A DNA stretch of 64,000 bases from Candidatus Hadarchaeota archaeon. GTDB lineage: Archaea; CAYQAE01; CAYVLA01. Position 1 is the first letter of the stretch. Every line of letters begins with the position of its first letter. Below are positions 3,181-50,782 of the stretch, one piece after another. Position numbers and translations under genes: made by a program. The notes below the pieces were generated by a model. The model was not told the origin of the DNA and did not search any database. It worked only from the letters and a program-made list of their open reading frames with translations. Location: NCBI GenBank assembly GCA_964621445.1, contig CAZUNO010000004.1, positions 64,001 through 128,000 of the forward strand, written 5' to 3'.

Positions 3181-3620
3181 ATCACCATGTAGAATTAGAA
3201 TATTAAAAGTATTTAATGTTTTTATTTGTGAAAAGCTTCTTTATTATGAGATAATTTTGATTCATGGGAGTGAAAGCTTTGATCGGTCTTCCGGAACCTT
3301 CATCGGAGACACATCGTTGGCAATGATTACATACATCCCATTAATCTATCATCCATTGATATTTCTTGGCTTCAAATGTGGTTGAGGGGCATGGGCAGCG
3401 AGGAAAAAGAACCACATGCTTCATCCGTACAACCGCCCGCAGTCAGGAAGATGCTTGGAATTTTGTTATCTAATCCCATATTAGGGTAAAGTGGTAAATC
3501 GGCCCCTTTGTTAAACCGGTGAAGGATAAAGTCCTACATCGTTCTTCGAATTCACTTCAGGTTTTCCATGTATGTCAAGCTTGTTAAGTAAGCGATTAGG
3601 GCTGTCTCTTGAGCTGGTAT

Positions 3621-37690: not shown

Positions 37691-39322
37691 ATGAACAAAT
37701 TTCTAGAATCCATCACTGGAAAAAGGTCCTTTCATCTCCTGCTCATCCTTTCCATATTTTATGTAATATCTAGCGGAAGTGTGCTTAGTACAAACGGGCC
37801 CTACCAGCCAATCCAACCAATCCAACCAATCCCCAATCTAACTTTTGATCCAATTCCTCCCGTTACCAATATCAGCCTTAGCGGTACTCAAGGTGAAAAT
37901 GGGTGGTTTACATCCGATGTGACCGTCACCCTGGAGGCAGCCGACAACCAGGGTACATGGAATAGCGGGCTCAAGGGAACCTTCTACTCAGTTATCCACG
38001 AGGACCAGCAATTTTCGCTTTCCTTGGAGTACACTGAACCCTTCACGGTTTCCCGGGAGGGGAAAAATACGGTCCGGTACCATTCGATAGATAACTATGA
38101 TAATTCGGAGGAAACCAATATCGAAGAGATTAGGATCGATAAGACCGAGCCACAGGGCTCCATGTCCATAAAGGGCCAGCCAGAGTATGTTTCGGAGCGG
38201 GATATACAGTTAAGCCTTTCGGGAACGGACGGGGTTTCTGGTTTGGCGACGGTGAGGTTAAAGACCGAGGGTGGTAGCTGGAGTGACTGGAGATCATATT
38301 CAAGCTCAATGAACTGGCAGCTAAGCTCAGGTGACGGAGAAAAGACGATAATGGCCCAGTTAAAGGACAGGGCCGGACAAACCTCGGAAACCTACCAGGA
38401 CCAGGTTATCCTGGACACATCTGCCCCGTCAATTTCCCTGGGTAACGAGAATGGATCGGTGGTTAAGAGCAATTCGGTTACCATCAACTGGAGCGCCACC
38501 GACGAGGGTTCAGGGATAGATAGTTACCAGGTCAGGGTCGATGGTGGGTCCTGGAAAAATGCGGGTACGGATTCCTCCTACACCTTTGAGAATCTCGAGG
38601 GTGGGGAACACGTCTTTGAGATCAAGGTAGCTGATGAGCTGGGGCAAACCGAAGTTAAGGCCCTTGAAATGGTGGTAAATACCACCCCAATTGGTGGACC
38701 ATCAATGCTCGAGGAGCTTCTTATCGTGGTGTTAATAATTGCCGTTGCCATAGGAGGGGTACTATACTGGTTGAGCAAGAGGCCCGAGAAACCGCCCGAG
38801 CCAGCCCAGCTGAGGGTTACCGCGGACCCAGATGAGATAATTGCCGATGGAAAATCCACATCCACCATAACCGTGCAACTGCTTGACGAGAAGGGTGAAC
38901 CGGTGGAGGCCAATGCGGATACCGAGGCAAAACTAAAGGCTAGCTCCGGGAGCATCGTCAATCCCGTGGTGAAGATTGCCCAGGGAAGCGATTCCGGAAC
39001 CGCGGTTCTTGGTTCATCCACCAAGTTCGGGAGCGTGAACGTGACCGTCGAGAGTTCCGGGCTGGCTTCCAGTTCCGTTTCGGTTACCTTCAAGGAGAAG
39101 CCTAGATTCTGCATGGGATGTGGCAGCCGAATGTCCGTGGGCGAGAAGAGGTGCGAAAACTGCGGTGCATCTCCATCAAAATTCGCAGGGCCCGAAACCA
39201 AGACCTGTCACTGCGGGGCCGTACTGCCCTACACGGCGAACTACTGCAGTGAGTGCGGCGCCAAACAGTCCCGAGCCGGGGAGTTTTCGGGCGAGGGGCC
39301 CGAGCCCGAATCACAGGAGTGA
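37691..39322 (+). CDS. Single-pass membrane protein: extracellular Ig/FN3-like repeats, TM, invasin (Big_1)-like domain, double zinc ribbon
   Basis: Signal peptide; DxTxP-bounded Ig repeats (IDKTEP, LDTSAP); TM LLIVVLIIAVAIGGVLYWL; ADGKSTSTITVQLLDEKGEPV; C-terminal CMGC/CENC/CHC/CSEC. Confidence 0.85.
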   Translation: MNKFLESITGKRSFHLLLILSIFYVISSGSVLSTNGPYQPIQPIQPIPNLTFDPIPPVTNISLSGTQGENGWFTSDVTVTLEAADNQGTWNSGLKGTFYSVIHEDQQFSLSLEYTEPFTVSREGKNTVRYHSIDNYDNSEETNIEEIRIDKTEPQGSMSIKGQPEYVSERDIQLSLSGTDGVSGLATVRLKTEGGSWSDWRSYSSSMNWQLSSGDGEKTIMAQLKDRAGQTSETYQDQVILDTSAPSISLGNENGSVVKSNSVTINWSATDEGSGIDSYQVRVDGGSWKNAGTDSSYTFENLEGGEHVFEIKVADELGQTEVKALEMVVNTTPIGGPSMLEELLIVVLIIAVAIGGVLYWLSKRPEKPPEPAQLRVTADPDEIIADGKSTSTITVQLLDEKGEPVEANADTEAKLKASSGSIVNPVVKIAQGSDSGTAVLGSSTKFGSVNVTVESSGLASSSVSVTFKEKPRFCMGCGSRMSVGEKRCENCGASPSKFAGPETKTCHCGAVLPYTANYCSECGAKQSRAGEFSGEGPEPESQE

Positions 39323-39327
39323 TATGG

Positions 39328-39723
39328 GTGGGACTTCCGGCTGCAAAGCTTAACGACAAGATAACGGCCATGGACATCCATGTGATAATGGTGCCCTCCC
39401 CCGGGGGTCCGGTGCCCACGCCCACCCCTAGCCCCTTCACCGGAAATATAGTATCCGATGTATCATCCGACGTACTAATTGAGGGCCTTCCGGCAGCCAC
39501 CCTTGGCAGCCGGGCCATCAACATGCCTCCCCATATCCCGGTCGGGGGCCCTTTCATGAAACCTCCCATGAACGAGGGAAAGGTGATGATGGGCAGCACA
39601 AGCGTCCTCATAAATTCAAAGCCGGCAGCACGGCTGGGGGACACCGCCATGACCTGCAATGACCCGGTTGACCTGCCCATAGGACAGGTCATCTCCACAA
39701 CCACCACGGTTTTGATCGGATAG
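39328..39723 (+). CDS. PAAR-repeat spike-tip protein
   Basis: PAAK, PAAT and PAAR repeats with His/His/Cys candidate Zn ligands (DIH, PPH, TCND). GTG start after AGGAGTGA, which overlaps the upstream stop. Confidence 0.93.
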   Translation: MGLPAAKLNDKITAMDIHVIMVPSPGGPVPTPTPSPFTGNIVSDVSSDVLIEGLPAATLGSRAINMPPHIPVGGPFMKPPMNEGKVMMGSTSVLINSKPAARLGDTAMTCNDPVDLPIGQVISTTTTVLIG

Positions 39724-39769: not shown

Positions 39770-40312
39770 ATGAAGACACACAAAACGGCCGTGGTAATAA
39801 TTCCTCCAGGTGAGGTACTGGAGCCAATACAGGAAATAAGGAAGGTGCACGACAGGCAGTTCAGGCGCTGGATGCCCCATATCACGCTGATCTATCCCTT
39901 TAGGCCCCGGAAATACTTCCCGATAATAGCCCGTGAGATGAGGCCCGCAGCCTCCAATGCAAGCCCTTTCGAGGTGGGCCTTAAGGAGCTGTCATTCTTC
40001 GAGCACTCGTCCGGCAGGTGCACCCTGTGGCTCGTCCCTGAACCAGGGGCTAAACTGGGTGAACTCAGGGAGTCCCTGGTCCAGGTGGTTCCAGATTGCG
40101 ATGATGTTGCTAGATTCAGAAATGGATTTACCCCGCATCTAAGTGTTGGGCAGGCGGAGGGGAAAAGAGAAGCCGTTGAGCTTATTGAGGAGCTTGAAAA
40201 AGGCTGGGAGCCCCGCTCCTTCAAGGTAACCGAAGCCAGCTTCATATCGAGAGGAGACCCTCCCAATGACATATTCCAAAAAAACCTGTCGATAGAGCTT
40301 GGTCAAGAATAG
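39770..40312 (+). CDS. 2H phosphoesterase (2'-5' RNA ligase family)
   Basis: Two HxT/S motifs: PHITLIYPF and FTPHLSVGQ. Confidence 0.9.
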   Translation: MKTHKTAVVIIPPGEVLEPIQEIRKVHDRQFRRWMPHITLIYPFRPRKYFPIIAREMRPAASNASPFEVGLKELSFFEHSSGRCTLWLVPEPGAKLGELRESLVQVVPDCDDVARFRNGFTPHLSVGQAEGKREAVELIEELEKGWEPRSFKVTEASFISRGDPPNDIFQKNLSIELGQE

Positions 40313-41008
40313 CTAGACAAGGGGTCCCTGGCTTCGGACCTCTACCTTTTCTATTAGGCCTACCTCTTTCTGTATCTGTATTTCTCTCTCCAGATCACAC
40401 TCAATCTCTAGCACTGTGGCCTGCATAGGTTCATCTAGTCTCAATTTCCCTTTTCCAGGCTTGATCTCCATGCCCTTTTTGGAGAATTCCTCTTCCGCCA
40501 TCAAAAGGGCCTCCATTACCTTATGGCCCAGGGCATCCGCCTTATCCCTCTCCTTTTGCCATACCTGAATCGAGTACCTGGCCTGCAGTTTGGCTTTTTT
40601 TAGGGTAACGATTCCCCTTTTTGGCTGGTAGCTGACCTTGATATTCTCCTTTCCTTTCTTGGGGGCTCTCTCAAATTGGACCTGTACCTGGTCATAATCC
40701 ATGTGGTAGTCCTCGCCCTCGCGGAGAATCTTTCCCTGCGGATGCTCAACGCGAAGGCTACCTCTCATCATGGATTCCTGAAGCTCAAAGTTCTTTTTGC
40801 TACCCGTCCCGTTCAGCAATTCCACTGCACGTGGAGTCTGGGATTCCAGATCCTCGGATATTGTAGGTTTGCCCATCTCAAAACCGAGATTCCTGATGGA
40901 GATGGCAGGGAGGCTTTCTGGGTCCTCCCCGAAAATTATCCTTTTATCCTCCACTCCCACCTCGGTTTGAAGGAGCTCCCCTATGCTCTCCTCGATCTCT
41001 CTAAGCAT
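40313..41008 (-). CDS. CIS accessory protein, candidate tail terminator/cap with inserted beta-domain
   Basis: Last gene of the tail operon. LPAISI and YSIQVW...DKADAL resemble tail-terminator folds. The central insert resembles the baseplate J repeats. Confidence 0.55.
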   Translation of the reverse strand: MLREIEESIGELLQTEVGVEDKRIIFGEDPESLPAISIRNLGFEMGKPTISEDLESQTPRAVELLNGTGSKKNFELQESMMRGSLRVEHPQGKILREGEDYHMDYDQVQVQFERAPKKGKENIKVSYQPKRGIVTLKKAKLQARYSIQVWQKERDKADALGHKVMEALLMAEEEFSKKGMEIKPGKGKLRLDEPMQATVLEIECDLEREIQIQKEVGLIEKVEVRSQGPLV

Positions 41009-41014
41009 ATGCCT

Positions 41015-41677
41015 TCACTCTGTTAGCTTTTTGGAGGGAATGATCCTGGCCCTTCCGTGAAGCAGGTTGCCTATCCTAGGCGTGCATTCCTCGTCAAGGT
41101 TGGTGAAGGTAATGGTTAGTATTTCCTTTTTGGGATTTGGATTATGGAGTCGATATCTGTACCATACATATTCGTTTGAGGAAAGGAGATATTCGACGTA
41201 GGGGTTGTCCTCTCCCTTTGGCCTTAACCTGGATCTATCGTGGACGAACATCTCGCTAAACACGTACTGGGTACCGTCGGTATAGTCCAGGGCTATGTCC
41301 AGTGTTTTTCTATCCCCGTTCTCCGCTCCTGCCCAGTAGTCAATGGAATCAAGCTTGGAGACTATCCCGAATCTGCAGATATCTCCCACCTGACCGGGAT
41401 CCAGTAGCCACTGCTTGGTAATCAAGCCCACTATCTGGGTCTCATAGCTTGAGGACTCGCCGGGAATGACCTCGTTAAGCTCGTGGGGATTTCCTATCTG
41501 GCTGGTTACATTGAGAAGGGTGGTTGTCTCCTGCATATTATCTATGTAGTCTCGGAGAATCTCGATCTTCTTTTCAAGAGAATCGAGATCGGACTTTATC
41601 TTGTTCTGCATTTCGTTCCAGTCTTCAGACTTGATTACCTCTCCAGGGTTTCTGGCTATTGGTTCAAATTCTACCAT
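41015..41677 (-). CDS. CIS accessory protein, candidate short fibre/baseplate appendage
   Basis: N-terminal PGEVIKSEDWN, short coiled coil and beta-rich C-terminal domain. Follows the wedge genes. GGAGG precedes ATG 41677. Confidence 0.5.
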   Translation of the reverse strand: MVEFEPIARNPGEVIKSEDWNEMQNKIKSDLDSLEKKIEILRDYIDNMQETTTLLNVTSQIGNPHELNEVIPGESSSYETQIVGLITKQWLLDPGQVGDICRFGIVSKLDSIDYWAGAENGDRKTLDIALDYTDGTQYVFSEMFVHDRSRLRPKGEDNPYVEYLLSSNEYVWYRYRLHNPNPKKEILTITFTNLDEECTPRIGNLLHGRARIIPSKKLTE

Positions 41678-41678
41678 T

Positions 41679-42596
41679 TCAATCATCCTCCGATACGGCA
41701 ACGATCCCGGTCGTCCCCGCGGCCTTCATTGAGTTAACTACCTTCTGAAGGTACTCTTGGGAGACATCGCTAGATTCCAGCGTATCATGATCTATAATGA
41801 CCTTAAAGGTTGAGGGTTGGAGCCTTTTCCATTCGAATTCTATCTCAACCGGGGGTATACCAACGGCGAAAGTCTGTTCATCGAACTTTGCCTCATCAAA
41901 TACTCCCACCATTTTTCCCAGGGATTCGCTGTACTTCCATTTTGATATCCATCTGGTGAGCGTAGGTATTTCTCCCGGGGATTTTTCATCGGGCAGCTTC
42001 TCCCCGTCTAGAGTGGCAGCTCCTTTTTCCAGTATTAGTGTTTGATTACTCCCTAACTTACCATCATAGGTGACCGACTCGCCGGTATCGATGTTGGTTA
42101 TCTCTGGCTGGCTGACCTCGCCACCCTCCTTGACGGTTATGGTTATTCGAGGCTTAGCATCCTCTATGCTCTGGCTGCTGATCTGCCAGGTATCGCTGGC
42201 CCTTACCGTCAGCTTCTGGCGTCCCGGCGCCGGAGGATTCTCCACAACCTTGACCGAGCCCTGCCCCTCGTCCCTTATGAGCTTGGTAACCGAGTCCAAG
42301 ATTGCCGATACCGTTCCACCCCCCTTGTACTCGTCAACGGCTCTATGGATACGAGTTCGGAAATTGGCATCATCTTCATCGTCAAATCTTTCCATGCCCA
42401 GGAGGCTTGCCAGATTGTCCAGGTTTTCCCCATCAGCAACGTCGACCCATTTTGTCTTCATGACGTCCATGAGCTTATCTTCCGCCAGATCGAGTTCGGT
42501 GCTGATCCCATGTATGAGGACACTAATCAGGGAATCTTCGTCCCAACTTCTATAAAAACGAGGAAGCCTCCGCCTAATTCTTTCGACCCGGTCCAT
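41679..42596 (-). CDS. Baseplate wedge protein (P2 gpI / T4 gp7-like)
   Basis: ADGENLDNLASLLGMER...EDDANFRTRI...GGGTVSAI and C-terminal KAAGT. Directly after baseplate J. Confidence 0.78.
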   Translation of the reverse strand: MDRVERIRRRLPRFYRSWDEDSLISVLIHGISTELDLAEDKLMDVMKTKWVDVADGENLDNLASLLGMERFDDEDDANFRTRIHRAVDEYKGGGTVSAILDSVTKLIRDEGQGSVKVVENPPAPGRQKLTVRASDTWQISSQSIEDAKPRITITVKEGGEVSQPEITNIDTGESVTYDGKLGSNQTLILEKGAATLDGEKLPDEKSPGEIPTLTRWISKWKYSESLGKMVGVFDEAKFDEQTFAVGIPPVEIEFEWKRLQPSTFKVIIDHDTLESSDVSQEYLQKVVNSMKAAGTTGIVAVSEDD

Positions 42597-42600
42597 CCAA

Positions 42601-44169
42601 TCACTTCAATTCGAAATCTATATCCATATTTCTTGGTTCCGCACGTTCCCGGCTAGATATGGTTATGTTCTCCTTTTCACTCTGCACTATCTCTCCTTCC
42701 TTGTGCGCCGTGAGTTTGACCTCCCTGACATCGATAACCTGGTTTACTTTAAGCGCGGAGTCGATAACCCGGGAATATAGCACATCCTCCCCTATTCCCA
42801 GGAAGGATATGTAGCTTCTCACCGCCATCTCGGCCTCGGTAAGCACACCGGGAGCATCGGCGGATTTTTTCAAAGTGAGAATGAAGCTAACATCGATGTA
42901 GGCCCTCTTCGGCCTGGAAAACTCGACCTTGATGCCCGCGGCCCGCGTTTCGTCTATTACCGCCTGAATCTCTTCTCCATCGCCCCCATCAGCGATAACG
43001 GCGACTATTCCCGGAACATCCTCGGGCATGTCCTCCACAAGAAGGGATCTAACTCCCTCGACCGCCCCCACTGCCGATTCAAGAGAGGACACGGTTGCTC
43101 TACCCGCGAATTCGAGGGCATGCCTTGCCCTTTCACGGAGCTCCTCATCGGTCTCCGTGCCCACGCCATTGGTGATGTCGCCCTTGTTTATCACATACTC
43201 AATTCCGGGGACCGGCTGAGGCATAACGGTGATGGTGCCGGCGAGCACGTTACCACGGGTTCCCGGTTGGTCACAGACCACGGGAACATCGGCTTCCCAT
43301 CTTCCCTCCTCCGTGGGCGAGAGCTCACCCTCTTCGGTGGTGGTGAATGTACGGGCTTCCTCGGGGGTGGAGGAGAATGTGGATACGCTTGCACCTTTGG
43401 GCACGATTATCTGATTATAGCTTGTATAGTCAACGCGAAAAACGGTTCGGGGGTCGGGCTTGGTCCCTTCGGCCACCCACCTGATCCTATTTTCCACCAC
43501 AATGTAGTCGACCTCGGGTTGGAAGGTATGCTCCTCACCCTCTACGGTCCCCTCCACACTGGATACCTCCTCGACCAGAGGCTTCTTGAGCTCGTATTCA
43601 TCAGAACCATCGAAGAGGTGAACCTCTTCTGAATTTGCTACCGTTTCTGGCTCGGAAGCTCTGCCGAAAGTTACCTGTCCCGAGGAAGGCTTTGGGGGTT
43701 TCCTGGTTATTCCGAGAAGGGAGACAACCATATCCAGGGCCTCTCCCTCCGCGGTCTCCAAAAAACCGGACTCATGAACCTCCTCCATCTGAGAGTAAAG
43801 GAAATCGATCTCCCGGCTTATGGCCTCCACTATGGTCCTAACCACGCTACCTGGGCTCACGTCCGAGATCCCGGCCGGCCTTGAGAACCAGTAGCTAACC
43901 TCGAATTCGGTGCCCTGGTCGGGGTGCCTTCCATCTGGTAACCACTCCACCTGGTTGGCTATTAATCTGAAATCCTCTTCTATATTGAACTGGACACCGG
44001 TCCCGTTGTGGATACCAGTGATCTTTGAGATCTTCTCCACAGGTTTGCTGGACAATTGATAGGAATTTAACCCCTGCCTGTATTCGATTTCCTCCACATT
44101 TTCCCCGCCAGTTATCTGGGTCAAGATGTCCTTTGAAACCTTTCTGTAGTCCTTCCGTATCGCCTTCAC
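42601..44169 (-). CDS. Baseplate J / gp47 / T4 gp6-like wedge protein
   Basis: PGSVVRTIVEA, TAEGEALD...LGITR, PGTRGNV, GTETDEELRER and RAAGI. Confidence 0.92.
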   Translation of the reverse strand: MKAIRKDYRKVSKDILTQITGGENVEEIEYRQGLNSYQLSSKPVEKISKITGIHNGTGVQFNIEEDFRLIANQVEWLPDGRHPDQGTEFEVSYWFSRPAGISDVSPGSVVRTIVEAISREIDFLYSQMEEVHESGFLETAEGEALDMVVSLLGITRKPPKPSSGQVTFGRASEPETVANSEEVHLFDGSDEYELKKPLVEEVSSVEGTVEGEEHTFQPEVDYIVVENRIRWVAEGTKPDPRTVFRVDYTSYNQIIVPKGASVSTFSSTPEEARTFTTTEEGELSPTEEGRWEADVPVVCDQPGTRGNVLAGTITVMPQPVPGIEYVINKGDITNGVGTETDEELRERARHALEFAGRATVSSLESAVGAVEGVRSLLVEDMPEDVPGIVAVIADGGDGEEIQAVIDETRAAGIKVEFSRPKRAYIDVSFILTLKKSADAPGVLTEAEMAVRSYISFLGIGEDVLYSRVIDSALKVNQVIDVREVKLTAHKEGEIVQSEKENITISSRERAEPRNMDIDFELK

Positions 44170-44576
44170 TCCTCTCCCTCCAAATCGAATGGGTAGGTAA
44201 TGCTAAGCGTTCTTCCTTCCCCCTCGGGGACCACGGATATGGCTATATACAATAGGTTGGGGTCATGATTATCGGATCTAACCCTAATCTCGGTTACTTC
44301 CCTTATCCTTGGCTCCTGGGAGAGTGCAAACCTTATCGTGTTACGTATTCTATTCCTGGTCATCTCGTTATTCGGCTCCCCTATTATGTCATACAGGCGG
44401 GACCCGTAATCCGCATGACCCACATCCTCCAATTCACCCTCCTCGGTGGTTAGGCGATGAATAATTGCCTGGGCAAGATTGTCTTCCCCGGAGATAACAT
44501 CCAGGTCCCCTTTGCCGGGAACTAGATCAGCACCCACCCGGTCGAATTCGAGTCTGAGATCTGTTTTCATGGACAT
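44166..44576 (-). CDS. gp25/GPW baseplate (sheath initiator) protein
   Basis: SGEDNLAQAIIHRLTTEEGEL, HADYGSRL and EPRI. Confidence 0.92.
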   Translation of the reverse strand: MSMKTDLRLEFDRVGADLVPGKGDLDVISGEDNLAQAIIHRLTTEEGELEDVGHADYGSRLYDIIGEPNNEMTRNRIRNTIRFALSQEPRIREVTEIRVRSDNHDPNLLYIAISVVPEGEGRTLSITYPFDLEGEE

Positions 44577-44586
44577 ATCAAAACCT

Positions 44587-45399
44587 CTAGTTTATGGTCA
44601 CCAGTGACCCCTTGATCTTGGTAACTGCACTCGAGGAAAGCTCCGAGAATGCATCGGATTTTAGTAGAAGCTGTAGCGCCTGGACCTTTGCCTTCCCCTG
44701 GGTGGTGGCATTTAGCGCCGTCTGGGCCTCCATGCCAATCTCGGCCGACTTGATATCGGCACTCTTCTTTGATTCAAGTTTTAGATCGGTGCCACAATCG
44801 AGCCCCATCGCCTTCTGGCTTTCAATCTTTACGTCAGATCCCGATATGCTCATATTGCCACTGGATTTAAGTGAGGCATCTCCATCCGCCGCTATCGAAA
44901 CGTTTCCCTTTGACTTTATCTCGACGTCCCCATCCTTCTTCACCCTGATTTTAGTTTCCCCGGAGGTAAGATTCGCCTCCTCGTCGCTTATGGCGAGCGT
45001 GGTTCCGCTTGGAAACTCCAAATATATCCTTCTAACATCCGAGTTCTCCTCCTGGGGGGAAACGTAAACCACTTCCTCTGCCTCGCTTGCCGGCGGCCTA
45101 TCCTCATCATTATACAGCCTACCGACCACTATTGGATAGTTTATATCTCCGTTAGCAAATACCACCAGCACCAGATCACCCACGTTGGGAGGTCCCACAA
45201 AACCTATTACCTGGGTAGCTATCTGGGCCCTTCTGATTTCCAGATCTGGATTCTTGAGCCTAACGTCGCATTCGTAGTTGTCCTTGTCGCTTTCATCCTG
45301 GTGAGGGTAGATGGAGGTTACGACGCCCAGCTGGGGCATCCAGAAATTGCTGAGTTCCTCCTGTGTTATCCCTCTTACCGCTTCGACTATATCCATCAT
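44587..45399 (-). CDS. Central spike (P2 gpV / gp5 OB-fold plus beta-helix)
   Basis: LGVVTS and PNVGDLVLVVFANGDINYPIVVGRLY OB-fold motif, then beta-repeats ending bluntly in IKGSLVTIN. Confidence 0.9.
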   Translation of the reverse strand: MMDIVEAVRGITQEELSNFWMPQLGVVTSIYPHQDESDKDNYECDVRLKNPDLEIRRAQIATQVIGFVGPPNVGDLVLVVFANGDINYPIVVGRLYNDEDRPPASEAEEVVYVSPQEENSDVRRIYLEFPSGTTLAISDEEANLTSGETKIRVKKDGDVEIKSKGNVSIAADGDASLKSSGNMSISGSDVKIESQKAMGLDCGTDLKLESKKSADIKSAEIGMEAQTALNATTQGKAKVQALQLLLKSDAFSELSSSAVTKIKGSLVTIN

Positions 45400-46379
45400 G
45401 GTAGTTCGGCTCCTTTCTTCCTTCCAGTTACGGTGGTGGTGAAGCCCTTTGTCTTGCTTAGGTAGTGCTCCACTCCGGTGACCTGTATCTCTCCATTTAG
45501 TGACGAATTTGGCGTGCCATTGACATCAACCACGTCTCCGAGTTTGATCTCCGCGCGTCCCACCAGGTCCAGGGTAACCTTCATTTTGTATTTCATTTTC
45601 TCCGCTCTCGCCTTAGCGACGCTTTGGGCGGTTTTAGTATCCTTTATGGTGGGGTCATTTATGATGAGGGGATTTCCGCCGCCGCCTCCGGATATCTTTG
45701 CTAAAACGTTCTGTTTCGTCAACCAGGTTATGGTGTGCGAACCCTTAGAGCTTGAAGGGCTTTCCCCCCGAATCTCGGTGGACCCATACCTTGGGGATGT
45801 ATCGAGACAAGAGGCGCTCATGATATCCTTTCCGTATTCCACCGTATGTCGATCCTCGGTAACCCAGGATCGAAATATTAGCTGGCCCTGCTCGTTTGAA
45901 TAGATATCGAAATTACATTTCTTGGCCAGCTTCAGGATGTGCTTAAAGGCATTTATCTTATCATCGAGGGAATATATCGGTAGATTAATTCCATCGGAGG
46001 CCTCCTTGACCTCTATCTCGGCCTCCTTGGCCAGATCCTTCACTATCTTACCCGCAGTTTGATTCGAGTATACCTTCTTGGTCTTGAGTTTCAGAAGTGC
46101 CGAGAAGGGACCCAGTCCGGTCAGGGTTAGGTTTCTGATATCGTACTCGACCTTGTCCAACGCACCGGCAAACACCTTCTCCAGTTTATCCTCATAACCA
46201 AGGCTGGCCTCCACCATCTCCTTTCCCTCGACCTCTAGGGCATCTGGAGATGACATCTTTATCTCGCAGCTATCAATGGGCAATCCCATGCTTCTCTTAA
46301 CCCGAAGGCTCACCAGCTTCCTTTCCTTGGCCGAAATCGAGTCCGATCCTACGGTGATGGAGAAAGCCGGTTTCATCAT
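45396..46379 (-). CDS. Baseplate hub (P2 gpD / Mu gp44 / T4 gp27-like)
   Basis: LGYEDKLEKVFAG, QTAGKIVKDLA, GRAEIKLGDVV and VTGVEHYLSKTKGFTT. Position directly before the spike. Confidence 0.88.
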   Translation of the reverse strand: MMKPAFSITVGSDSISAKERKLVSLRVKRSMGLPIDSCEIKMSSPDALEVEGKEMVEASLGYEDKLEKVFAGALDKVEYDIRNLTLTGLGPFSALLKLKTKKVYSNQTAGKIVKDLAKEAEIEVKEASDGINLPIYSLDDKINAFKHILKLAKKCNFDIYSNEQGQLIFRSWVTEDRHTVEYGKDIMSASCLDTSPRYGSTEIRGESPSSSKGSHTITWLTKQNVLAKISGGGGGNPLIINDPTIKDTKTAQSVAKARAEKMKYKMKVTLDLVGRAEIKLGDVVDVNGTPNSSLNGEIQVTGVEHYLSKTKGFTTTVTGRKKGAELP

Positions 46380-46880
46380 CTACACCATCGACCCCCTAGA
46401 TGAATTGATCTCCTTTACCTTACTCCTTACCTCCTCCTTCGCCGATTGCTTCTGTTCCGGGGGCGGCGTTTCACCTGGGCCCTTCTCAGGTTCATGCTCC
46501 CTCAGTACCATGGAGTATTCGCTGCCCGAGGGTTCGGTGTTTTTTAGGGTAGCCGAGAATTTTTCCATAACTACCTCAGTTACCTCCGTCAGAGGGCTTA
46601 TATCGCAGGAAAATGATAACACCTTGCCCTTGGAGAAAAGATCCCTGAGCTGATCAAGGGTCTCGGGAGTGTCCGGGCCAACCAACCGACCGTCGAAGGA
46701 GATCTTTACCGGGTCCCGCCCCAGGTCCTGAAATACATTTGAATCGGAACCCGGGATCTTGAGCTCAACCACCGATCGCTCTCCGCTTATTGATAGATTA
46801 GCTATATTTCTAAGCTCCCGGATCACCCCATCCTCATCATTTCGCATAATGAGATCTATGTCCTCTACCCTCATCTGCAT
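46380..46880 (-). CDS. Tube initiator/baseplate protein (P2 gpU / Mu gpN N-terminal-like)
   Basis: VELKIPGSDSNVFQDLGRDPVKISFDG and YSMVLRE. Lies between the tape-measure-like gene and the hub. Confidence 0.75.
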   Translation of the reverse strand: MQMRVEDIDLIMRNDEDGVIRELRNIANLSISGERSVVELKIPGSDSNVFQDLGRDPVKISFDGRLVGPDTPETLDQLRDLFSKGKVLSFSCDISPLTEVTEVVMEKFSATLKNTEPSGSEYSMVLREHEPEKGPGETPPPEQKQSAKEEVRSKVKEINSSRGSMV

Positions 46881-46882
46881 AG

Positions 46883-48439
46883 CTATATCTCCTCAAAGCT
46901 GATGTGACCGTAGTGACGGCGCACCTGTTCGGTCATTATCCTGGATATCTTTCTCTCCAGGTCCCTCAGATCCTCTTCCTGAACTTCGCCTGAAACGACC
47001 AGGTTCACATCCCTCTCACGGGTCGGTCTGACCGGTCGCAATACGGGACGAGAAGGTTGTTCTTCCTCTCTCTGAACGGTGGCCTGAGCGGCCGTTGATG
47101 GAGAGGTGGAGACCGGGGGCATTGTGGCCGTCACCGGGGGCCCGGAAACTGCAATATTTGCTAGGGGCCTAAGGTATTCCCTCTGGGTGACCTCGATGTT
47201 CTGGGCCATTTTGGTAAAATGATGTTCTATCTCACTGGCCAGGGCCGTTTCCAGGGAGAGTAATCCAGGTCCTGCCTCCCGCGGCCGAGATACGGGTGAG
47301 GGCCGGGTTTCGGCAGGGGCCCGGAAATCCACGGGAATAACTGGCAGTTGTGTTTCTTGCCCCTCCGATCCAATCTCCTTCAGACTGGATAATTCTCGGC
47401 CTATTTGCCCTTGAAGTCTGGCCATGGCCATGCTTGGCGCCAAAATCTCGGGAACAATGGCCCTGGTTTTATCCTCCTCAGTCTCAGTTCCGGATATATA
47501 CCTTCTTTCTTCCGAGGATGGTTGCTTTGCCGATACATTTCTAGTATCCTCAGGGGGGATTTCGCCCCCCGTTATGCTTATGGGCGAGCCCAGGTCTCCC
47601 TGTAGGCCTGAACCCAGCCTGGTCAGGGGCATCACAAGTTGAGAGGCGGCCACGGTCAGTGGTGAAACCGGGGTCTTCTCGGTGCCTAGCTGTGGCTTTT
47701 TCATTTCTACTTCTTTACCATCGGATTGTTTCCTTTCCGCGGTTTCCCCGTCTGACGCAGGTGTGCCAGGAAAGGCCGGGATTCCGGCCATAACTGTGCT
47801 TGAAATTGCGCCTGCAAGAAGAGCGGCATTGCCTATCTGACGGCCCGCTCGCTCTGCAACGGACAGGGGCTCATTTATGCCCTCCTCCAATTCCATTATG
47901 CTGGATGATACCCGTCTTGTGGCCTGGGATGGTCGTGACTGAGAAACTAGACCTGCCAGTCCCTGCGATCCGGTGATATCTCCGACCTGGAAATCTTTGG
48001 AAGGGGTCTCCTGGACAGCCCCTGGAACGAGGTGTACCATTTGCTGGGCCATGGCTGAGGCTATCTTTCTGGCTACCGAGACCCGGAATAGTAGGGAAAC
48101 GTTTACCCCTCCCATCCTTCCCGTTTGGGTCTTGACATCTTGCTCCATTTGGTCCTGTCGAGACCAGATATCAAGGGGTGGAAGAGGTGCGAAACCAGTC
48201 ATAGACAGCTCCGTCATCCTGTTACCTACGGTTGCCAGACGGGTTATGGCGCCAGTCAAGGTCCTGAAAACCGATGTCAGAAGTCTTTCCATGGATGCCG
48301 CGTACCTGGATGTATCAACACCCATCTCCCATAACCGGTTAACGTAGCGCTGGGTATAGGCAGCTATTCTAATGGGTTTAGAGATGGCTCGATAGGTTTT
48401 TCGTTCATCCAAGGTTTTCCTCCACCTCTTCCTCTTCAT
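46883..48439 (-). CDS. Tape-measure-like protein
   Basis: Syntenic position after the chaperones. Ala-rich helical N-half, Pro/Ser/Thr-rich C-half and terminal helix DLRDLERKISRIMTEQVRRHYG. Confidence 0.6.
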   Translation of the reverse strand: MKRKRWRKTLDERKTYRAISKPIRIAAYTQRYVNRLWEMGVDTSRYAASMERLLTSVFRTLTGAITRLATVGNRMTELSMTGFAPLPPLDIWSRQDQMEQDVKTQTGRMGGVNVSLLFRVSVARKIASAMAQQMVHLVPGAVQETPSKDFQVGDITGSQGLAGLVSQSRPSQATRRVSSSIMELEEGINEPLSVAERAGRQIGNAALLAGAISSTVMAGIPAFPGTPASDGETAERKQSDGKEVEMKKPQLGTEKTPVSPLTVAASQLVMPLTRLGSGLQGDLGSPISITGGEIPPEDTRNVSAKQPSSEERRYISGTETEEDKTRAIVPEILAPSMAMARLQGQIGRELSSLKEIGSEGQETQLPVIPVDFRAPAETRPSPVSRPREAGPGLLSLETALASEIEHHFTKMAQNIEVTQREYLRPLANIAVSGPPVTATMPPVSTSPSTAAQATVQREEEQPSRPVLRPVRPTRERDVNLVVSGEVQEEDLRDLERKISRIMTEQVRRHYGHISFEEI

Positions 48440-48641
48440 CCTCGGAAACCACTATTCTGGTCACTCCTTCAGCCGCCTTTTGGGCCGTTCTCTTCATCTC
48501 ATTTCTGTATGACATAGCGCCGGTGAGGAAGAGAACCTGGTCTCTGGTAAGGTTGGCGGGATTATCGGCCAGTTTGTATCCGCAGTCCAGACATAGGGCT
48601 GCAAGCTCTACGCCCTCGGGACTTTTAACGAACCGTTTCAT
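48405..48641 (-). CDS. Tail assembly chaperone, T-like segment (own ATG or reached by -1 frameshift)
   Basis: 78-aa ORF in the -1 frame of the upstream gene with an ATGA overlap. PANLTRDQVLFL resembles chaperone-T motifs. Confidence 0.7.
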   Translation of the reverse strand: MKRFVKSPEGVELAALCLDCGYKLADNPANLTRDQVLFLTGAMSYRNEMKRTAQKAAEGVTRIVVSEDEEEEVEENLG

Positions 48642-49003
48642 TCGGATTTTTTTTTACGAGCTGCCGATTCGGTCACGCCGCTTAGTTCAAGGACCTTCAT
48701 TCCAATAAACTCCGGTACCCCGAATTTCATTGCGGCAACCTCTCCCTCAGAGAGCTCCGGGTCAACCAGGCCCTTTGAAGCCGCCATTCTGAGTGCTTCA
48801 AGGTTTTTGTGGACGTCAACATTGCCTAAATCCGGGGTTCCATCGTCCTTCAATGGAACGTTTCCAATCAAACCAAATATCTCAGAAAGCTCTCCATCGG
48901 TTAATGGACGTATAGAGACCTCTGCGTTATCGTACTCCTTGATGGTGAGAGTTTTCTTCATTTTTGCGCCCTGTAGAATGGCCTGCTTCGTGAGCCTTGT
49001 CAC
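48638..49003 (-). CDS. Tail assembly chaperone (G-like)
   Basis: About 121 aa directly after the tube gene, with VSIRPLTDGE. GTG start after GGAGG; ends in an A9 run (RKKKSE*). Confidence 0.78.
   Translation of the reverse strand: MTRLTKQAILQGAKMKKTLTIKEYDNAEVSIRPLTDGELSEIFGLIGNVPLKDDGTPDLGNVDVHKNLEALRMAASKGLVDPELSEGEVAAMKFGVPEFIGMKVLELSGVTESAARKKKSE
48647..48655 (-). other. Candidate -1 frameshift slippery site (A9)
   Basis: Minus strand reads CGT AAA AAA AAA TCC GAA TGA; the -1 frame reads TAA AAA AAA ATC CGA ATG AAA CGG. Confidence 0.65.
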
Positions 49004-49008
49004 TTCTA

Positions 49009-49410
49009 CTACTCCTCCCTCATCCTGGTGGCGGTGAATGTGTAGTCGGTGGTGCCCACGCCGTTGGCATCCATTGAGAACACCTTTCCCTCCAGATAGC
49101 ACCTATCGAAGGCCAAGGTCCTCACGGATTGACCTCCCTTCTTGAGTTCTATTACCAGCTGGAATGGCTGGATGTCAGCCACGCCGGTAACCATCATGCT
49201 ATCAAACTTTGGAAAGCTGGAACGCACCTTAAGCGTGCCCTCCACGTACATGGGTCCGTAGTCTATTCCCACCCTTTCGTCAAGGCCTATGTTGTGGACA
49301 TTCTGGCGGTTTCGGACCACCTTGTACTCTATTGCCTGAAGCCCTGGTATGACCTCGCCGTCGACCTTTATGTTACTAACATTTGCGGAAACAACAACTG
49401 GTTCTGGCAT
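49009..49410 (-). CDS. Tail tube protein
   Basis: 133 aa, beta-rich, directly after the sheath, ending DYTFTATRMREE. GGAGGTGA RBS. Confidence 0.85.
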   Translation of the reverse strand: MPEPVVVSANVSNIKVDGEVIPGLQAIEYKVVRNRQNVHNIGLDERVGIDYGPMYVEGTLKVRSSFPKFDSMMVTGVADIQPFQLVIELKKGGQSVRTLAFDRCYLEGKVFSMDANGVGTTDYTFTATRMREE

Positions 49411-49426
49411 CTATAATCACCTCCTC

Positions 49427-50782
49427 CTAGGCTTGAACGGTTATGGTGGCGTAGATATAATCTATGGCCCTAACCGGCCTTACCGCGATGTCCGCCCTAA
49501 CTATGCCCTGGGCGAAATCCTGTTCTGAACAGTACACGTCGACCAGGAAAGGTGGCTCCTCCCCGTCCACGCTGGGCACGATGGCGTCCTCACGTTCCAT
49601 GGTCATGAAGAACTCGGTTAGCTTCTCCCTTAGAGCAGTGCGACCGCCGGGGGTGTTAAGAGTACCGATGAAGTTCTCAGCCACATTCCGGGCTCCCCTA
49701 ACCGCGTGGTCAGCAACTCTGGTGACGCTGATCTGTTCCTTGTCGGTTGAAATGCCCTTCTCCACGATAATTCCTCTTCCCTTTCGGGCCTCCAGGGCCA
49801 GAATACCGGCCTTGAGAAGCTCCTTTAGCTGTGCAGGTGTGTACCTGGTTTCAAGCTCGGATACCCCGGTAATGGACTTGAAGGTCGGGGATTCGTAGTA
49901 GTTCAGCTTGCTTATCAAACCGCCAACGGCACCAGAAACTCCGTAGGGCGCTACAAGAACGAATCGATCGCTGGCCAGGGTCTCGGTTCTCTTTGCGATG
50001 TCCTCCACATCTTCCCCGGGTGCCACGGTCCCAATTCCGATCCTGTTCTTTGCCTCCTGGGCCATGTTCTTGCAGTGGGCATCGATCAGAGCATGTACCT
50101 TGGGGTCCCATGTGTCACAGACGGAAACCATGTCCACATCCTCTTCCATCTCCAACATCTCGAGGGCTGACTCGATATCCTCCATCTTTGGTTGAGCTGT
50201 CTCGCCGCCGGAAAGCTCGTACTCGCCTGGTGCAGGGATTGGACTCTTGGTCTCCTTTCCCTTGCTAAGGTCCTCCGCCGACACCAGTTCGGAGTTTTGG
50301 TTGAGCATTGTGACGATGTAGTTGTCACTGTCCGGATCCATGACCAGATCGTCCCATACCTCGAAGGTAACGCCATTGGTGATCTGTAGCATCACGCTGT
50401 CTTCCGAATTCCCTTCCGATACTCCCACCTTTATGGAGTTACCGGCCTCGCCCGGAACCTTTGATTCAAGGTCCACGAGCTTTGCGTTGTTCTCGTTGGT
50501 GAGGGTCGCTTTCGCGGATTTTGACCCTCCCGCCTCAACTCGCACCGCATATACCTGCGATACACCATTTAGAAAACAGGTGCGAGCATCCTTGGTTAGG
50601 GAATAGGCGGTATCCGCTCCGAACTTACCAGTCAGTTCCCGGTACCCAGTGACTGGTATCGGTTTGAGAAGGGGGCCCTTCTCAGCCGTGCCCACAAGCC
50701 CAACCACCCCGGCTGGATGAAGCTGTTGAGGCACGATCTCCTTTATTACCTGGATTTCAACTCCGGGTAGGATTCTTGCCAA
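49427..50782 (-). CDS. Contractile tail sheath protein
   Basis: ILPGVEIQ, GLVGTAEKGP, FLNGVSQVYAVRV, LSGG, ISVTRVAD and C-terminal VRPVRAIDYIYATITV. Confidence 0.95.
   Translation of the reverse strand: MARILPGVEIQVIKEIVPQQLHPAGVVGLVGTAEKGPLLKPIPVTGYRELTGKFGADTAYSLTKDARTCFLNGVSQVYAVRVEAGGSKSAKATLTNENNAKLVDLESKVPGEAGNSIKVGVSEGNSEDSVMLQITNGVTFEVWDDLVMDPDSDNYIVTMLNQNSELVSAEDLSKGKETKSPIPAPGEYELSGGETAQPKMEDIESALEMLEMEEDVDMVSVCDTWDPKVHALIDAHCKNMAQEAKNRIGIGTVAPGEDVEDIAKRTETLASDRFVLVAPYGVSGAVGGLISKLNYYESPTFKSITGVSELETRYTPAQLKELLKAGILALEARKGRGIIVEKGISTDKEQISVTRVADHAVRGARNVAENFIGTLNTPGGRTALREKLTEFFMTMEREDAIVPSVDGEEPPFLVDVYCSEQDFAQGIVRADIAVRPVRAIDYIYATITVQA

Follow-up and report, generated by a model that had tools for sequence, protein, structure and literature searches.

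In bacterial T6SS, the TssJLM complex fixes the baseplate and the spike tip at the cytoplasmic membrane. Extracellular contractile injection systems (CIS) such as Afp and PVC are characterized by an Afp15-like AAA+ ATPase and by a PAAR gene located inside the operon, between the spike and the baseplate genes. To our knowledge, the only candidates proposed so far to explain how CIS devoid of TssJLM find and cross their own membrane are CisA and a haloarchaeal protein with six transmembrane (TM) helices, and we know of no demonstration that either of them contacts the particle. Excerpts of the report on CisA (SCO4242), from the cytoplasmic CIS of Streptomyces coelicolor (PMC12237407), describe a bitopic protein whose gene lies at the baseplate end of its cluster, which is devoid of tail fibres and of TssJLM; CisA is absent from the purified particle and is proposed to carry the cytoplasmic particle to the membrane and to be required for firing. 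The haloarchaeal protein, Hbor_38620, is presented in the excerpted source (PMC11566945) as the putative membrane anchor of a T6SS-like CIS, encoded by a conserved gene beside the cluster; it correlates with the membrane-bound mode, and its role was deduced from genomic association and membrane localisation.

Analysis of a 64,000-nucleotide stretch of DNA from a Candidatus Hadarchaeota archaeon (here termed the window) reveals a different type of membrane protein next to a P2-like contractile tail cluster (Table 1). We tentatively favour the view that this protein, IgTMZnR, belongs to an archaeal P2-like CIS as an accessory component in the membrane, where it acts as an adaptor or trigger, and regard this view as somewhat short of an even chance. 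Judging from the excerpted descriptions of CisA and Hbor_38620, IgTMZnR would be analogous but unrelated to both. It resembles CisA in being a CIS-linked bitopic membrane protein, and its role is proposed by analogy; however, the N-terminus of CisA is cytoplasmic and its C-terminus lies outside, whereas the predicted orientation of IgTMZnR is the reverse. Moreover, CisA is actinobacterial and is described, in the same excerpts (PMC12237407), with a largely unstructured cytoplasmic part and an outer domain similar to substrate-binding proteins, without an Ig domain or a zinc ribbon. Hbor_38620 has six predicted TM helices, a cytoplasmic domain of ~150 residues and, as far as the excerpted description goes (PMC11566945), no large ectodomain, whereas IgTMZnR possesses one internal TM helix, ~300 residues outside, and a tail composed of an Ig domain and a zinc ribbon. 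The two CIS families differ as well: in a sheath search of 401 archaeal genomes (E <= 1e-8), matches were confined to the three genomes of the family described here, with none in the 398 others, so the sheath provided no outgroup loci. The likeness to TssJLM is limited to the proposed role; the architecture is unrelated, the host has no outer membrane, and TssL and TssM were not detected (see below).

Table 1. Features of the locus, with positions counted from the first letter of the window.
Feature	Position	Strand	Basis
IgTMZnR (P0001), gene of a predicted type-I membrane protein, 543 aa	37691..39322	+	ORF list, Pfam, NCBIfam, AlphaFold2
IgTMZnR, predicted signal-peptide-like N-terminus, aa 1-33	37691..37789	+	hydropathy; model helix 15-28
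IgTMZnR, three predicted extracellular beta-sandwiches, aa 58-149, 155-241, 247-329; OmpL47-type / Big_7-like	37862..38677	+	pLDDT, NF047446, Big_7, sequons
IgTMZnR, predicted TM helix, aa 339-362, followed by a K/R-rich stretch	38705..38776	+	Kyte-Doolittle, AlphaFold2 helix
IgTMZnR, predicted cytoplasmic Big_1 / invasin-D3-like Ig domain, aa 373-469	38807..39097	+	PF09134, pLDDT ~80
IgTMZnR, predicted cytoplasmic double zinc ribbon, aa 470-526, eight Cys in four knuckles	39098..39268	+	DZR match, conservation
Coupling junction: AGGAG 39315-39319, TGA 39320-39322, 5 nt, GTG 39328	39315..39330	+	read from sequence
PAAR tip protein, 131 aa	39328..39723	+	PF05488; orthologues
LigT-like 2H phosphoesterase, third gene of the + strand unit	39770..40312	+	PF13563 1.6e-34; synteny
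P2-like contractile tail cluster, 12 genes	40313..50782	-	Pfam, PHROGs

The architecture proposed for IgTMZnR in the first-pass annotation, i.e. a signal peptide, about three Ig-like domains, one TM helix, an invasin-like Ig domain and a double zinc ribbon, was borne out by Pfam, NCBIfam, AlphaFold2 and hydropathy analysis. At the N-terminus, a K/R stretch precedes a hydrophobic segment (residues 14-32, hydropathy script). In the predicted ectodomain, the OmpL47-type barrel domain (NF047446, NCBIfam) scores 76 bits (cut-off 40), and Big_7 (Pfam) matches residues 253-300. In the C-terminal part, Invasin_D3 (PF09134) scores 49.8 bits at residues 371-468 (cut-off 33), and Big_1 (PF02369) taken alone reaches 28.8 bits vs a cut-off of 34.9. 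The DZR domain (PF12773) matches residues 474-523 slightly below its cut-off (24.5 vs 27.3 bits), which is exceeded by the orthologue from the diverged locus L039 (35.3 bits). The cysteines of the ribbon (474/477, 488/491, 506/508 and 519/522) are invariant in eight of eight orthologues, and the ribbon is the most conserved part of the protein, with a mean pairwise identity of 85% vs 52-54% for the ectodomains. In the AlphaFold2 model (mean pLDDT 77), the confidence is >90 for the three beta-sandwiches, ~80 for the Ig domain (373-469) and ~65 for the ribbon (472-525).

The topology was predicted from the signal-like N-terminal segment, the placement of K/R residues (four within the 16 residues behind the TM helix, where the Kyte-Doolittle profile has its maximum of 2.86 at 343-361), the confinement of all eight Cys to the C-terminal ribbon, and the distribution of N-glycosylation sequons (five before the TM helix and one after it; 4-7 and 0-2, respectively, in the orthologues). 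Together they indicate an N-out, C-in arrangement, in which IgTMZnR is predicted to be a type-I single-pass protein with its ectodomain outside and with the invasin-like Ig domain and the Cys8 zinc ribbon in the cytoplasm, where the earlier annotation had also placed them. The outer stalk of three Ig domains is probably glycosylated.

The tail cluster reads, from position 50782 downwards: sheath, tube, c154 (chaperone-like), c518 (at the tape-measure position), c166, hub (gpD-like), spike (gpV-like), gp25, gpJ, gpI, c228 and c231, with the tube gene assigned by position and size alone and c231 giving a terminator-like lead in the protein atlas. Sheath, tube, hub, spike, gp25, gpJ and gpI thus occur together, without head or packaging genes, and the scanned flanking ORFs are metabolic or transport genes. 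The absence of lysis genes and of a canonical membrane complex, noted in the first-pass annotation, holds in our searches: no holin or endolysin family was found among the 40 window ORFs scanned (Pfam), and TssL (PF09850) and TssM (PF06761) gave no match in the genome (96% complete), with a positive E. coli control. The locus also departs from the extracellular CIS of the Afp/PVC type, as no AAA+ ATPase was matched among the operon proteins (Pfam) and the PAAR gene of the window is located outside the operon (in L039 it is inside). The predicted fold of c228, a helix and a CBM-like jelly-roll (weak matches, E ~1e-3), leaves room for the model-based suggestion that this protein may serve as a short fibre for receptor binding, which would fit an extracellular mode.

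The PAAR gene (PF05488, 47.5 bits, cut-off 27, E 2.1e-12) is the only PAAR match in the whole genome; its orthologues are 58-73% identical. It is encoded on the plus strand, separated from the minus-strand tail operon by the LigT-like gene, and shares the locus with a spike that contains a Phage_base_V OB domain (44587-45399), its putative capping partner. In agreement with what had been noted before, it lies outside the tail operon, 5 nt behind the 543-aa gene, whose stop falls within the PAAR ribosome-binding region, directly abutted by the AGGAG motif. A further possible start, the in-frame GTG at 39319, runs into the IgTMZnR stop, so that the coupling would be tight from either start. The gap of 4-5 nt between stop and start is found in all four distinct loci with this gene order (the window, L014, L026/L027 and L033), a degree of conservation that, on sequence comparison, exceeds chance; IgTMZnR is predicted to be co-transcribed and translationally coupled with PAAR. 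The position of the LigT-like gene is kept in the family of the window, and the gene is absent from L039 and L042; a T-rich hairpin is present downstream of it. Scans of the window for sigma-70 promoters and terminators performed no better than on shuffled sequences (the sigma-70 model is inapplicable to archaeal promoters), and scans for tRNA genes and Rfam families in the window were without a match.

The foremost alternative, which we consider rather unlikely, is that IgTMZnR is an ordinary surface protein (an adhesin or scaffold) with a tail that serves as a general anchor or sorting cassette, and that it neighbours the CIS through a shared variable island or shared regulation, with no coupling to firing. 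It agrees with a Foldseek search, in which the whole 543-aa model matched only generic tandem-Ig adhesins, complement and S-layer proteins; all these matches being generic, they provide no functional clue. The distribution of the gene, on the other hand, argues for a closer tie to the CIS. Relatives were found at 12 distinct loci (13 records, among which L026 and L027 are identical at 3581/3590 positions), and in all nine distinct informative ones a strict orthologue is located at the PAAR/effector end. Four of these belong to type A and five to type B, which possesses an opposite-strand PAAR-effector cassette instead of the small coupled PAAR; the membrane proteins of both types form one family (47-67% identical). 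CIS genes are seen wherever the contig is long enough (the window, L014, L026 and L030). In a sample of five genomes from the phylum, IgTMZnR, PAAR and the sheath are present together in three and all missing in the other two, so that within the phylum (five genomes) IgTMZnR, as judged from sequence, co-occurs strictly with the CIS; the tail profile has a single match in each CIS-positive genome, and the 398 other archaeal genomes searched have no match.

The adjacency persists in the diverged locus L039, where a shorter orthologue adjoins the operon end, convergent with the operon, and where the outer flank is different from that of the window. This is the sole tail-bearing gene in the 2.9 million IMG/VR contigs and belongs to one of five contigs there with this CIS family, of which L041, L043/L045 and L044 end before the region past the operon. 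(Of the 80 loci kept from an IMG/VR scan with gpJ, 75 are P2-like prophage regions, 24-35% identical, that fall outside this analysis; a tblastn search of a phage collection with the tail gave no match.) In L042, a 200-aa zinc-ribbon protein was rejected as a soluble orthologue, as the alignment is confined to the ribbon (hhalign 95%, 57 columns); it is a weak lead to a possible soluble zinc-ribbon-only protein at the CIS end.

Other loci speak for the surface-protein alternative. In L031, the 6.4 kb downstream of a paralogue with a different third knuckle contain urocanase, prefoldin, DHH and ECF-transporter genes but neither PAAR nor CIS genes, and the upstream housekeeping genes MBL606 and GluSyn are also syntenic in the family of the window, which means that part of the synteny reflects relatedness. 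As far as could be checked, however, we did not find that homologues mostly occur without CIS genes (9/9 loci, the three positive and two negative genomes, and L039), and these comparisons support IgTMZnR as a stable companion of this contractile-tail locus. The PAAR junction, tight and conserved as it is, also counts against a chance neighbourhood. Our findings nevertheless weaken the earlier emphasis on the coupling to PAAR: as five type-B loci are uncoupled and PAAR is inside the operon in L039, this link is dispensable, and we infer that the placement of PAAR behind IgTMZnR is a lineage-specific mode of tip expression, not the basis of the partnership. The possibility that IgTMZnR is a PAAR-borne cargo was rejected because of its signal peptide and TM helix and because of the same five uncoupled loci.

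A cytoplasmic invasin-type domain, described as unusual in the first-pass annotation, turned out to be common. The tail comprising the TM helix, the cytoplasmic Ig domain and the zinc ribbon forms a C-terminal cassette in 75 of the 150 best clusters, mostly from Bathyarchaeia (the tail profile gave 262 matches at E <= 1e-30, including giant Big_1-repeat adhesins, and 2866 at 1e-3). Among the clusters with the full module, the cassette ends within 25 residues of the C-terminus in 74/75 and is immediately preceded by the TM helix in 69/75, as in a generic anchor; the ectodomains, according to precomputed Pfam annotations, include solute-binding (PF01094/PF13458), cyclophilin, cupredoxin-like, PKD and beta-propeller domains. 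Both this position and the high diversity of the ectodomains would be expected of an ordinary surface protein. Against it stand eleven equal "longest contig" lengths that pair tail-bearing proteins (eight distinct 90% clusters) with homologues of c228, compared with ~0.02 expected by chance (a rough estimate, not a computed value); in addition, four pairs of NCBI accessions, each of a tail protein and a c228 homologue, differ by exactly 13. Equal lengths are taken here to mean the same contig, and accession offsets to mean gene distances, both being read from the records and not from DNA. At least eight tail-bearing clusters appear on this basis to share a contig with the CIS-family marker c228, and in Bathyarchaeia MAGs the tail protein would be 13 genes away from c228, i.e. 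non-adjacent. With 417 clusters of c228 homologues, the CIS family of this locus appears to be widespread in Bathyarchaeia.

The presence of relatives with the same inner tail near the same machine in other archaea makes IgTMZnR a good candidate, though not a proven one, to link machine and membrane. As an accessory component of the CIS, it would face the machine with its constrained cytoplasmic tail, which may dock the baseplate or the spike tip at the cytoplasmic membrane or relay a signal from the exchangeable ectodomain; the tail-like machine, devoid of a complex of the TssJLM type, would then be held at a fixed place in the membrane and discharge outward, anchored to the cell in T6SS-like fashion. 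The corresponding proposal of the first-pass annotation, a dock or trigger implying cell anchoring, stands as far as it relies on the companionship with the CIS and the lack of TssL/TssM, and is weakened by the dispensable PAAR link, the commonness of the cassette and the lack of PAAR and tail genes in the 6.4 kb behind the L031 paralogue.

The protein might, instead, act on the outside only, as a target-contact factor with an ectodomain that holds a neighbouring cell or surface for the CIS, in the way an adhesin aids T6SS, and with a tail that just anchors or clusters it. The swapping of adhesin-like ectodomains (OmpL47-type, PKD, propellers) over a constant tail, and their faster divergence compared with the tail, are in keeping with this idea, which we nevertheless regard as improbable: it accounts neither for the constraint on the zinc ribbon, by far the strongest in the protein (85% identity), nor for the location of a possible soluble zinc-ribbon-only protein at the CIS end in L042, weak as that lead is. 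A role in self-protection or kin recognition, in which a surface protein prevents or marks the attack by CIS particles of sister cells, is very improbable; the gene does occupy the variable effector end, beside the PAAR-effector cassette in type-B loci, and has a variable ectodomain, but the orthologue remains unchanged across effector cassettes (types A and B being one family), immunity proteins are usually small and paired one-to-one with toxins, and the conserved cytoplasmic zinc ribbon would have no obvious role. Least probable is a role in particle release, with IgTMZnR opening the envelope or the S-layer to let an extracellular tailocin out. This would suit the lack of holin and endolysin families among the scanned ORFs and a perhaps fibre-like, receptor-binding c228, but holins and spanins differ from a protein with one TM helix and large folded domains on either side of the membrane, and no lytic domain was detected by Pfam or NCBIfam.

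The adaptor reading can be extended to the whole set of cassette-bearing proteins. In this bolder version, which we consider unlikely, the cassette would be a conserved CIS-docking handle shared by a large family of modular trans-membrane receptors from Bathyarchaeia and a handful of other archaea, with swappable ectodomains (Ig, PKD, propellers and others) that sense or bind the target outside and an invariant zinc-ribbon tail that recruits or triggers, at the same place, a cytoplasmic contractile tail that is fibre-less and membrane-docked. The diversity of the cassette proteins would also fit a general-purpose anchor. There is some likeness to the tail fibres of extracellular CIS (PMC12923769), which combine a conserved CIS-proximal part with exchangeable distal binders (PKD, Ig, propellers); however, tail fibres are soluble, baseplate-attached parts of the particle, whereas the variable part of IgTMZnR would be across the membrane from the machine. 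If the extended reading is true, the tail fibres have in effect been shifted across the membrane, and archaea would have a new way to aim a T6SS-like weapon. An archaeal zinc ribbon that serves as a protein-binding module and links a cytoplasmic assembly to the membrane has a parallel, by analogy only, in CdpC, which tethers FtsZ1 to the membrane in Haloferax (excerpts of bioRxiv 10.64898/2026.07.16.738847).

Our searches of main texts in the literature retrieved no paper that joins contractile injection with a zinc ribbon and a transmembrane segment, and none that names Bathyarchaeia together with contractile injection systems. Next to CisA and the haloarchaeal six-TM protein, IgTMZnR would be a third, unrelated and easily recognised candidate for the membrane partner of a CIS without TssJLM, namely a predicted type-I protein with a cytoplasmic tail composed of an Ig domain and a double zinc ribbon. 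As this tail is small, folded and highly conserved, the docking hypothesis is directly testable and, if the swapping of ectodomains reflects the choice of target, the family may offer a handle to understand or re-aim archaeal injection systems.

The gene for the 543-aa membrane protein, the PAAR gene and a gene for a LigT-like 2H phosphoesterase form a plus-strand unit convergent with the end of the operon encoding the contractile injection system (CIS). As the first-pass annotation had read from the sequence, the PAAR gene lies outside the tail operon, 5 nt after the membrane gene: the motif AGGAG (39315-39319) is followed by the stop codon TGA (39320-39322) and, five bases on, by a GTG in the PAAR frame. 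An alternative in-frame GTG at 39319 overlaps the stop. Each of the four distinct loci arranged in this way (the window, L014, L026/L027 and L033) has a stop-start junction of 4-5 nt, and three of them also possess the stop-overlapping GTG.

The proposed domain order (signal peptide, three ectodomains, one TM, invasin-like Ig domain, double zinc ribbon) was supported by Pfam, NCBIfam (OmpL47-type barrel) and an AlphaFold2 model with a mean pLDDT of 77 (above 90 for the three ectodomains, about 80 for the cytoplasmic Ig domain and about 65 for the ribbon). The signal-like N-terminus, the K/R residues after the TM, the location of all eight Cys beyond it and that of 5/6 N-glycosylation sequons before it lead us to predict an N-out, C-in topology. 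Constraint is strongest in the zinc ribbon, where pairwise identity averages 85%; the cytoplasmic Ig domain reaches 58% and the ectodomains 52-54%.

Features of the window and of related loci
Feature	Position	Strand	Basis or remark
584-aa coiled-coil protein	35767-37521	-	divergent from membrane gene
Membrane gene, 543 aa	37691-39322	+	
PAAR gene	39328-39723	+	
LigT-like 2H phosphoesterase	39770-40312	+	PF13563, 1.6e-34
P2-type contractile tail cluster, 12 genes	40313-50782	-	Pfam, PHROGs
Sheath	within 40313-50782	-	Pfam, PHROGs
133-aa protein at tube position	49009-49410	-	position and size
154-aa chaperone-like protein	48638-49102	-	Pfam, PHROGs
518-aa protein at tape-measure position	within 40313-50782	-	Pfam, PHROGs
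c166	within 40313-50782	-	DNA_circ_N / DUF6046 matches
gpD-like hub	within 40313-50782	-	Pfam, PHROGs
gpV-like spike	within 40313-50782	-	Pfam, PHROGs
gp25, gpJ, gpI	within 40313-50782	-	Pfam, PHROGs
c228	41015-41701	-	no family match
c231	CIS operon	-	no family match
h506, 506-aa protein	50968-52488	+	no family; divergent from sheath gene
Type-B cassette, G001	L016:1715-7869		
Type-B cassette	L030:11527-17843		
Type-B cassette	L034:317-6472		
Rearranged CIS locus	L042:6350-10344		AT-rich IMG/VR contig
Paralogous subgroup	L031:1-1167		
Paralogous subgroup	L032:1590-2123		

The source archaeal MAG is 3.2 Mb in size and 96% complete. The earlier statement that lysis genes and a canonical membrane complex are lacking held up: head, packaging, lysis and AAA+ families gave no matches among the 40 ORFs scanned (22015-63468), and TssL and TssM were not found in the source genome. 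The tube-position and chaperone-like ORFs overlap by 94 nt as listed and a 198-nt gap precedes the tape-measure-position gene, a layout reminiscent of the chaperone pair of P2-like tails, which involves a frameshift. The protein c228, which serves as the marker for this CIS family and has no Pfam or PHROG family, is modeled (pLDDT 89) as a jelly-roll preceded by a long helix. The jelly-roll weakly resembles carbohydrate-binding modules, and c228 could be a short fibre or peripheral baseplate protein. Its homologues form 417 clusters, the named ones from Bathyarchaeia/Bathyarchaeota; its conservation (67-80% identity within the family, far above the 39-48% of the neighboring c231) would be unusual in a receptor binder. 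For c231, a protein language model provided a lead to tail terminators (0.93).

Further genes flank this region. The protein h506 has a counterpart at the equivalent position in G003 (56% identity), with ABC-2 transporter genes next in both genomes, and may belong to the CIS locus. The coiled-coil protein, with a hydrophobic segment near either terminus (13-31 and 549-567), shows 31-36% identity in L026/L027, is missing in G003, and is possibly another membrane-associated partner. The LigT-like gene, which could encode a lineage-specific effector or accessory protein, separates the PAAR slot from the CIS end in all window-family loci reaching that far, and is absent from two IMG/VR loci, L039 and L042.

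A large protein search retrieved six full-length relatives of the 543-aa protein (48-67% identity), and genome, genome-contig and metagenome searches yielded 13 records, or 12 distinct loci (L026 and L027 are identical at 3581/3590), which we sorted by tblastn with all window proteins. In type A (the window, G003/L014, L026/L027, L033) the membrane gene is followed by the small PAAR gene, LigT and the CIS operon end. In type B (G001/L016, L028, L029, L030, L034) a cassette of about 6 kb on the opposite strand takes the place of the small PAAR gene, and LigT and the CIS come next wherever the contig continues. The cassette encodes a 360-413-aa PAAR protein extended at its C-terminus by ~260 aa, a 465-aa protein, a 292-343-aa protein in which the domain of this extension recurs (38% identity), a 601-aa calcineurin-like phosphoesterase and a DcrB (PF08786) protein, of a family that we take to be DUF1795/Eag chaperones; it looks like a swappable T6SS-style PAAR-effector module. 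In L028 and L029 the DcrB gene alone is seen. The L031 locus shows no CIS genes within 6.4 kb downstream of its membrane gene, where urocanase, prefoldin, DHH and ECF-transporter genes lie instead; L032 and L035 are on contigs too short to be typed. L031 and L032 differ from the other loci in a longer third zinc knuckle and make up a paralogous subgroup, to which a protein with PKD-type ectodomains (P0010) is related. All nine strict orthologues thus occupy the PAAR/effector slot of a CIS locus, but only four are PAAR-coupled, and PAAR coupling is a local arrangement. Upstream housekeeping genes (for an MBL-fold and a glutamate-synthase-like protein) are partly syntenic across loci, so relatedness contributes to the conserved neighborhood.

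The co-occurrence proposed by the first-pass annotation as a check was found in the five genomes sampled from the phylum: in G000, G001 and G003 a sheath is accompanied by a single copy of the membrane gene and by one PAAR-type match close to it, while all three are missing from G002 (91% complete) and G004 (98% complete). Searches of 398 other sampled archaeal genomes detected neither the sheath nor the tail profile.

When a profile built from the last 180 residues was searched against 1.84 billion representative proteins, it gave 2866 matches at E <= 1e-3 and 262 at 1e-30. This whole tail module was matched as one stretch in 75 of the best 150; the others are mostly giant Big_1-repeat proteins matched in their Ig part only. 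The full-module proteins range from 184 to 1395 aa, and have the module at most 25 residues from the C-terminus in 74/75 cases and a hydrophobic helix just ahead of it in 69/75. A cytoplasmic invasin-type domain, initially deemed unusual, is instead a hallmark of this tail-bearing family. Starting from one typical member, a word-based search listed 75 proteins; besides a block of solute-binding (PF01094/PF13458) proteins, their precomputed Pfam assignments show, among others, PKD repeats, PQQ/YVTN/NHL propellers, a cyclophilin and a cupredoxin-like domain. Where a source is named it is a Candidatus Bathyarchaeia MAG, apart from one bacterial label. Taken alone, so widespread a tail argues for a general-purpose anchor. 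A generic surface protein encoded on an island common with the CIS is an explanation we regard as unlikely yet worth keeping in view.

The tail cassette nevertheless appears to track this CIS family. A scan of IMG/VR with a broad tail alignment returned a single locus, L039, whose 318-aa orthologue (38% identity over 256 residues spanning ectodomain 3, TM, Ig and ribbon) is encoded by a gene converging on the end of a CIS operon that is diverged but belongs to this family (identities: c228 52%, gpJ 47%, PAAR 57%). There PAAR lies within the operon, with spike and gp25 on either side, and the locus has another outer flank. In the opposite direction, scans with c228 and gpJ detected this CIS family on only five IMG/VR contigs, two of which, L039 and L042, show genes beyond the operon. 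L042 is rearranged: c231 is followed by a convergent gene for a 200-aa zinc-ribbon protein and by an inverted c166, beyond which the plus strand carries the sheath, tube and chaperone genes. The alignment of this soluble zinc-ribbon protein to the tail is confined to its C-terminal double ribbon (hhalign 95%); the protein is a weak lead to a putative counterpart. Furthermore, at least 11 'longest contig' values are equal between tail proteins and c228 homologues (15293, 16930, 17987, 18978, 19458, 23861, 24663, 62918, 75728, 91901 and 386804; 120 of the 417 c228 clusters listed), which we infer to denote the same contigs; the tail proteins involved differ in their ectodomains and fall into eight distinct 90%-identity clusters. 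Finally, four NCBI accession pairs of a PQQ-propeller-tail protein and c228, from closely related MAGs counted as one lineage, are each exactly 13 apart. If, in line with practice, accessions follow gene order, the propeller protein is 13 genes from c228, at the CIS locus edge and not adjacent to c228.

The idea that the protein docks or triggers the CIS was partly supported. The analysis shows the architecture and predicted topology of the protein, its coupling to PAAR, its CIS co-occurrence and the cross-lineage association of the tail; contact with the CIS and a cell-anchored mode are inferred. We tentatively favor a membrane adaptor, a reading that still falls short of an even chance. Through its cytoplasmic Ig and zinc-ribbon tail, the protein would touch the tip or the baseplate periphery of the CIS and fix or trigger it at the membrane, in a cell-anchored mode, and the exchangeable ectodomain, in the pseudo-periplasm or S-layer space, may sense contact. 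A contact factor acting only outside the cell seems improbable to us, a role in immunity or kin recognition more so, and a release factor most improbable of all.

For the membrane adaptor, the closest known proteins by proposed function are CisA, which is bitopic, proposed to be needed for firing and absent from purified particles (PMC12237407), and Hbor_38620, which has six TM helices and correlates with a T6SS-like mode (PMC11566945). The likeness is one of role only; the 543-aa protein lacks the defining architecture of both and hence belongs to neither family. A recent archaeal precedent for a zinc ribbon as membrane-tethering adaptor is CdpC (bioRxiv 10.64898/2026.07.16.738847). Our literature search, with supplementary gene lists outside its scope, found neither this membrane-protein family nor any CIS of Bathyarchaeia described. 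What emerges more generally is a modular type-I membrane family, whose conserved cytoplasmic Ig and double-zinc-ribbon tail accompanies one archaeal contractile-tail family.
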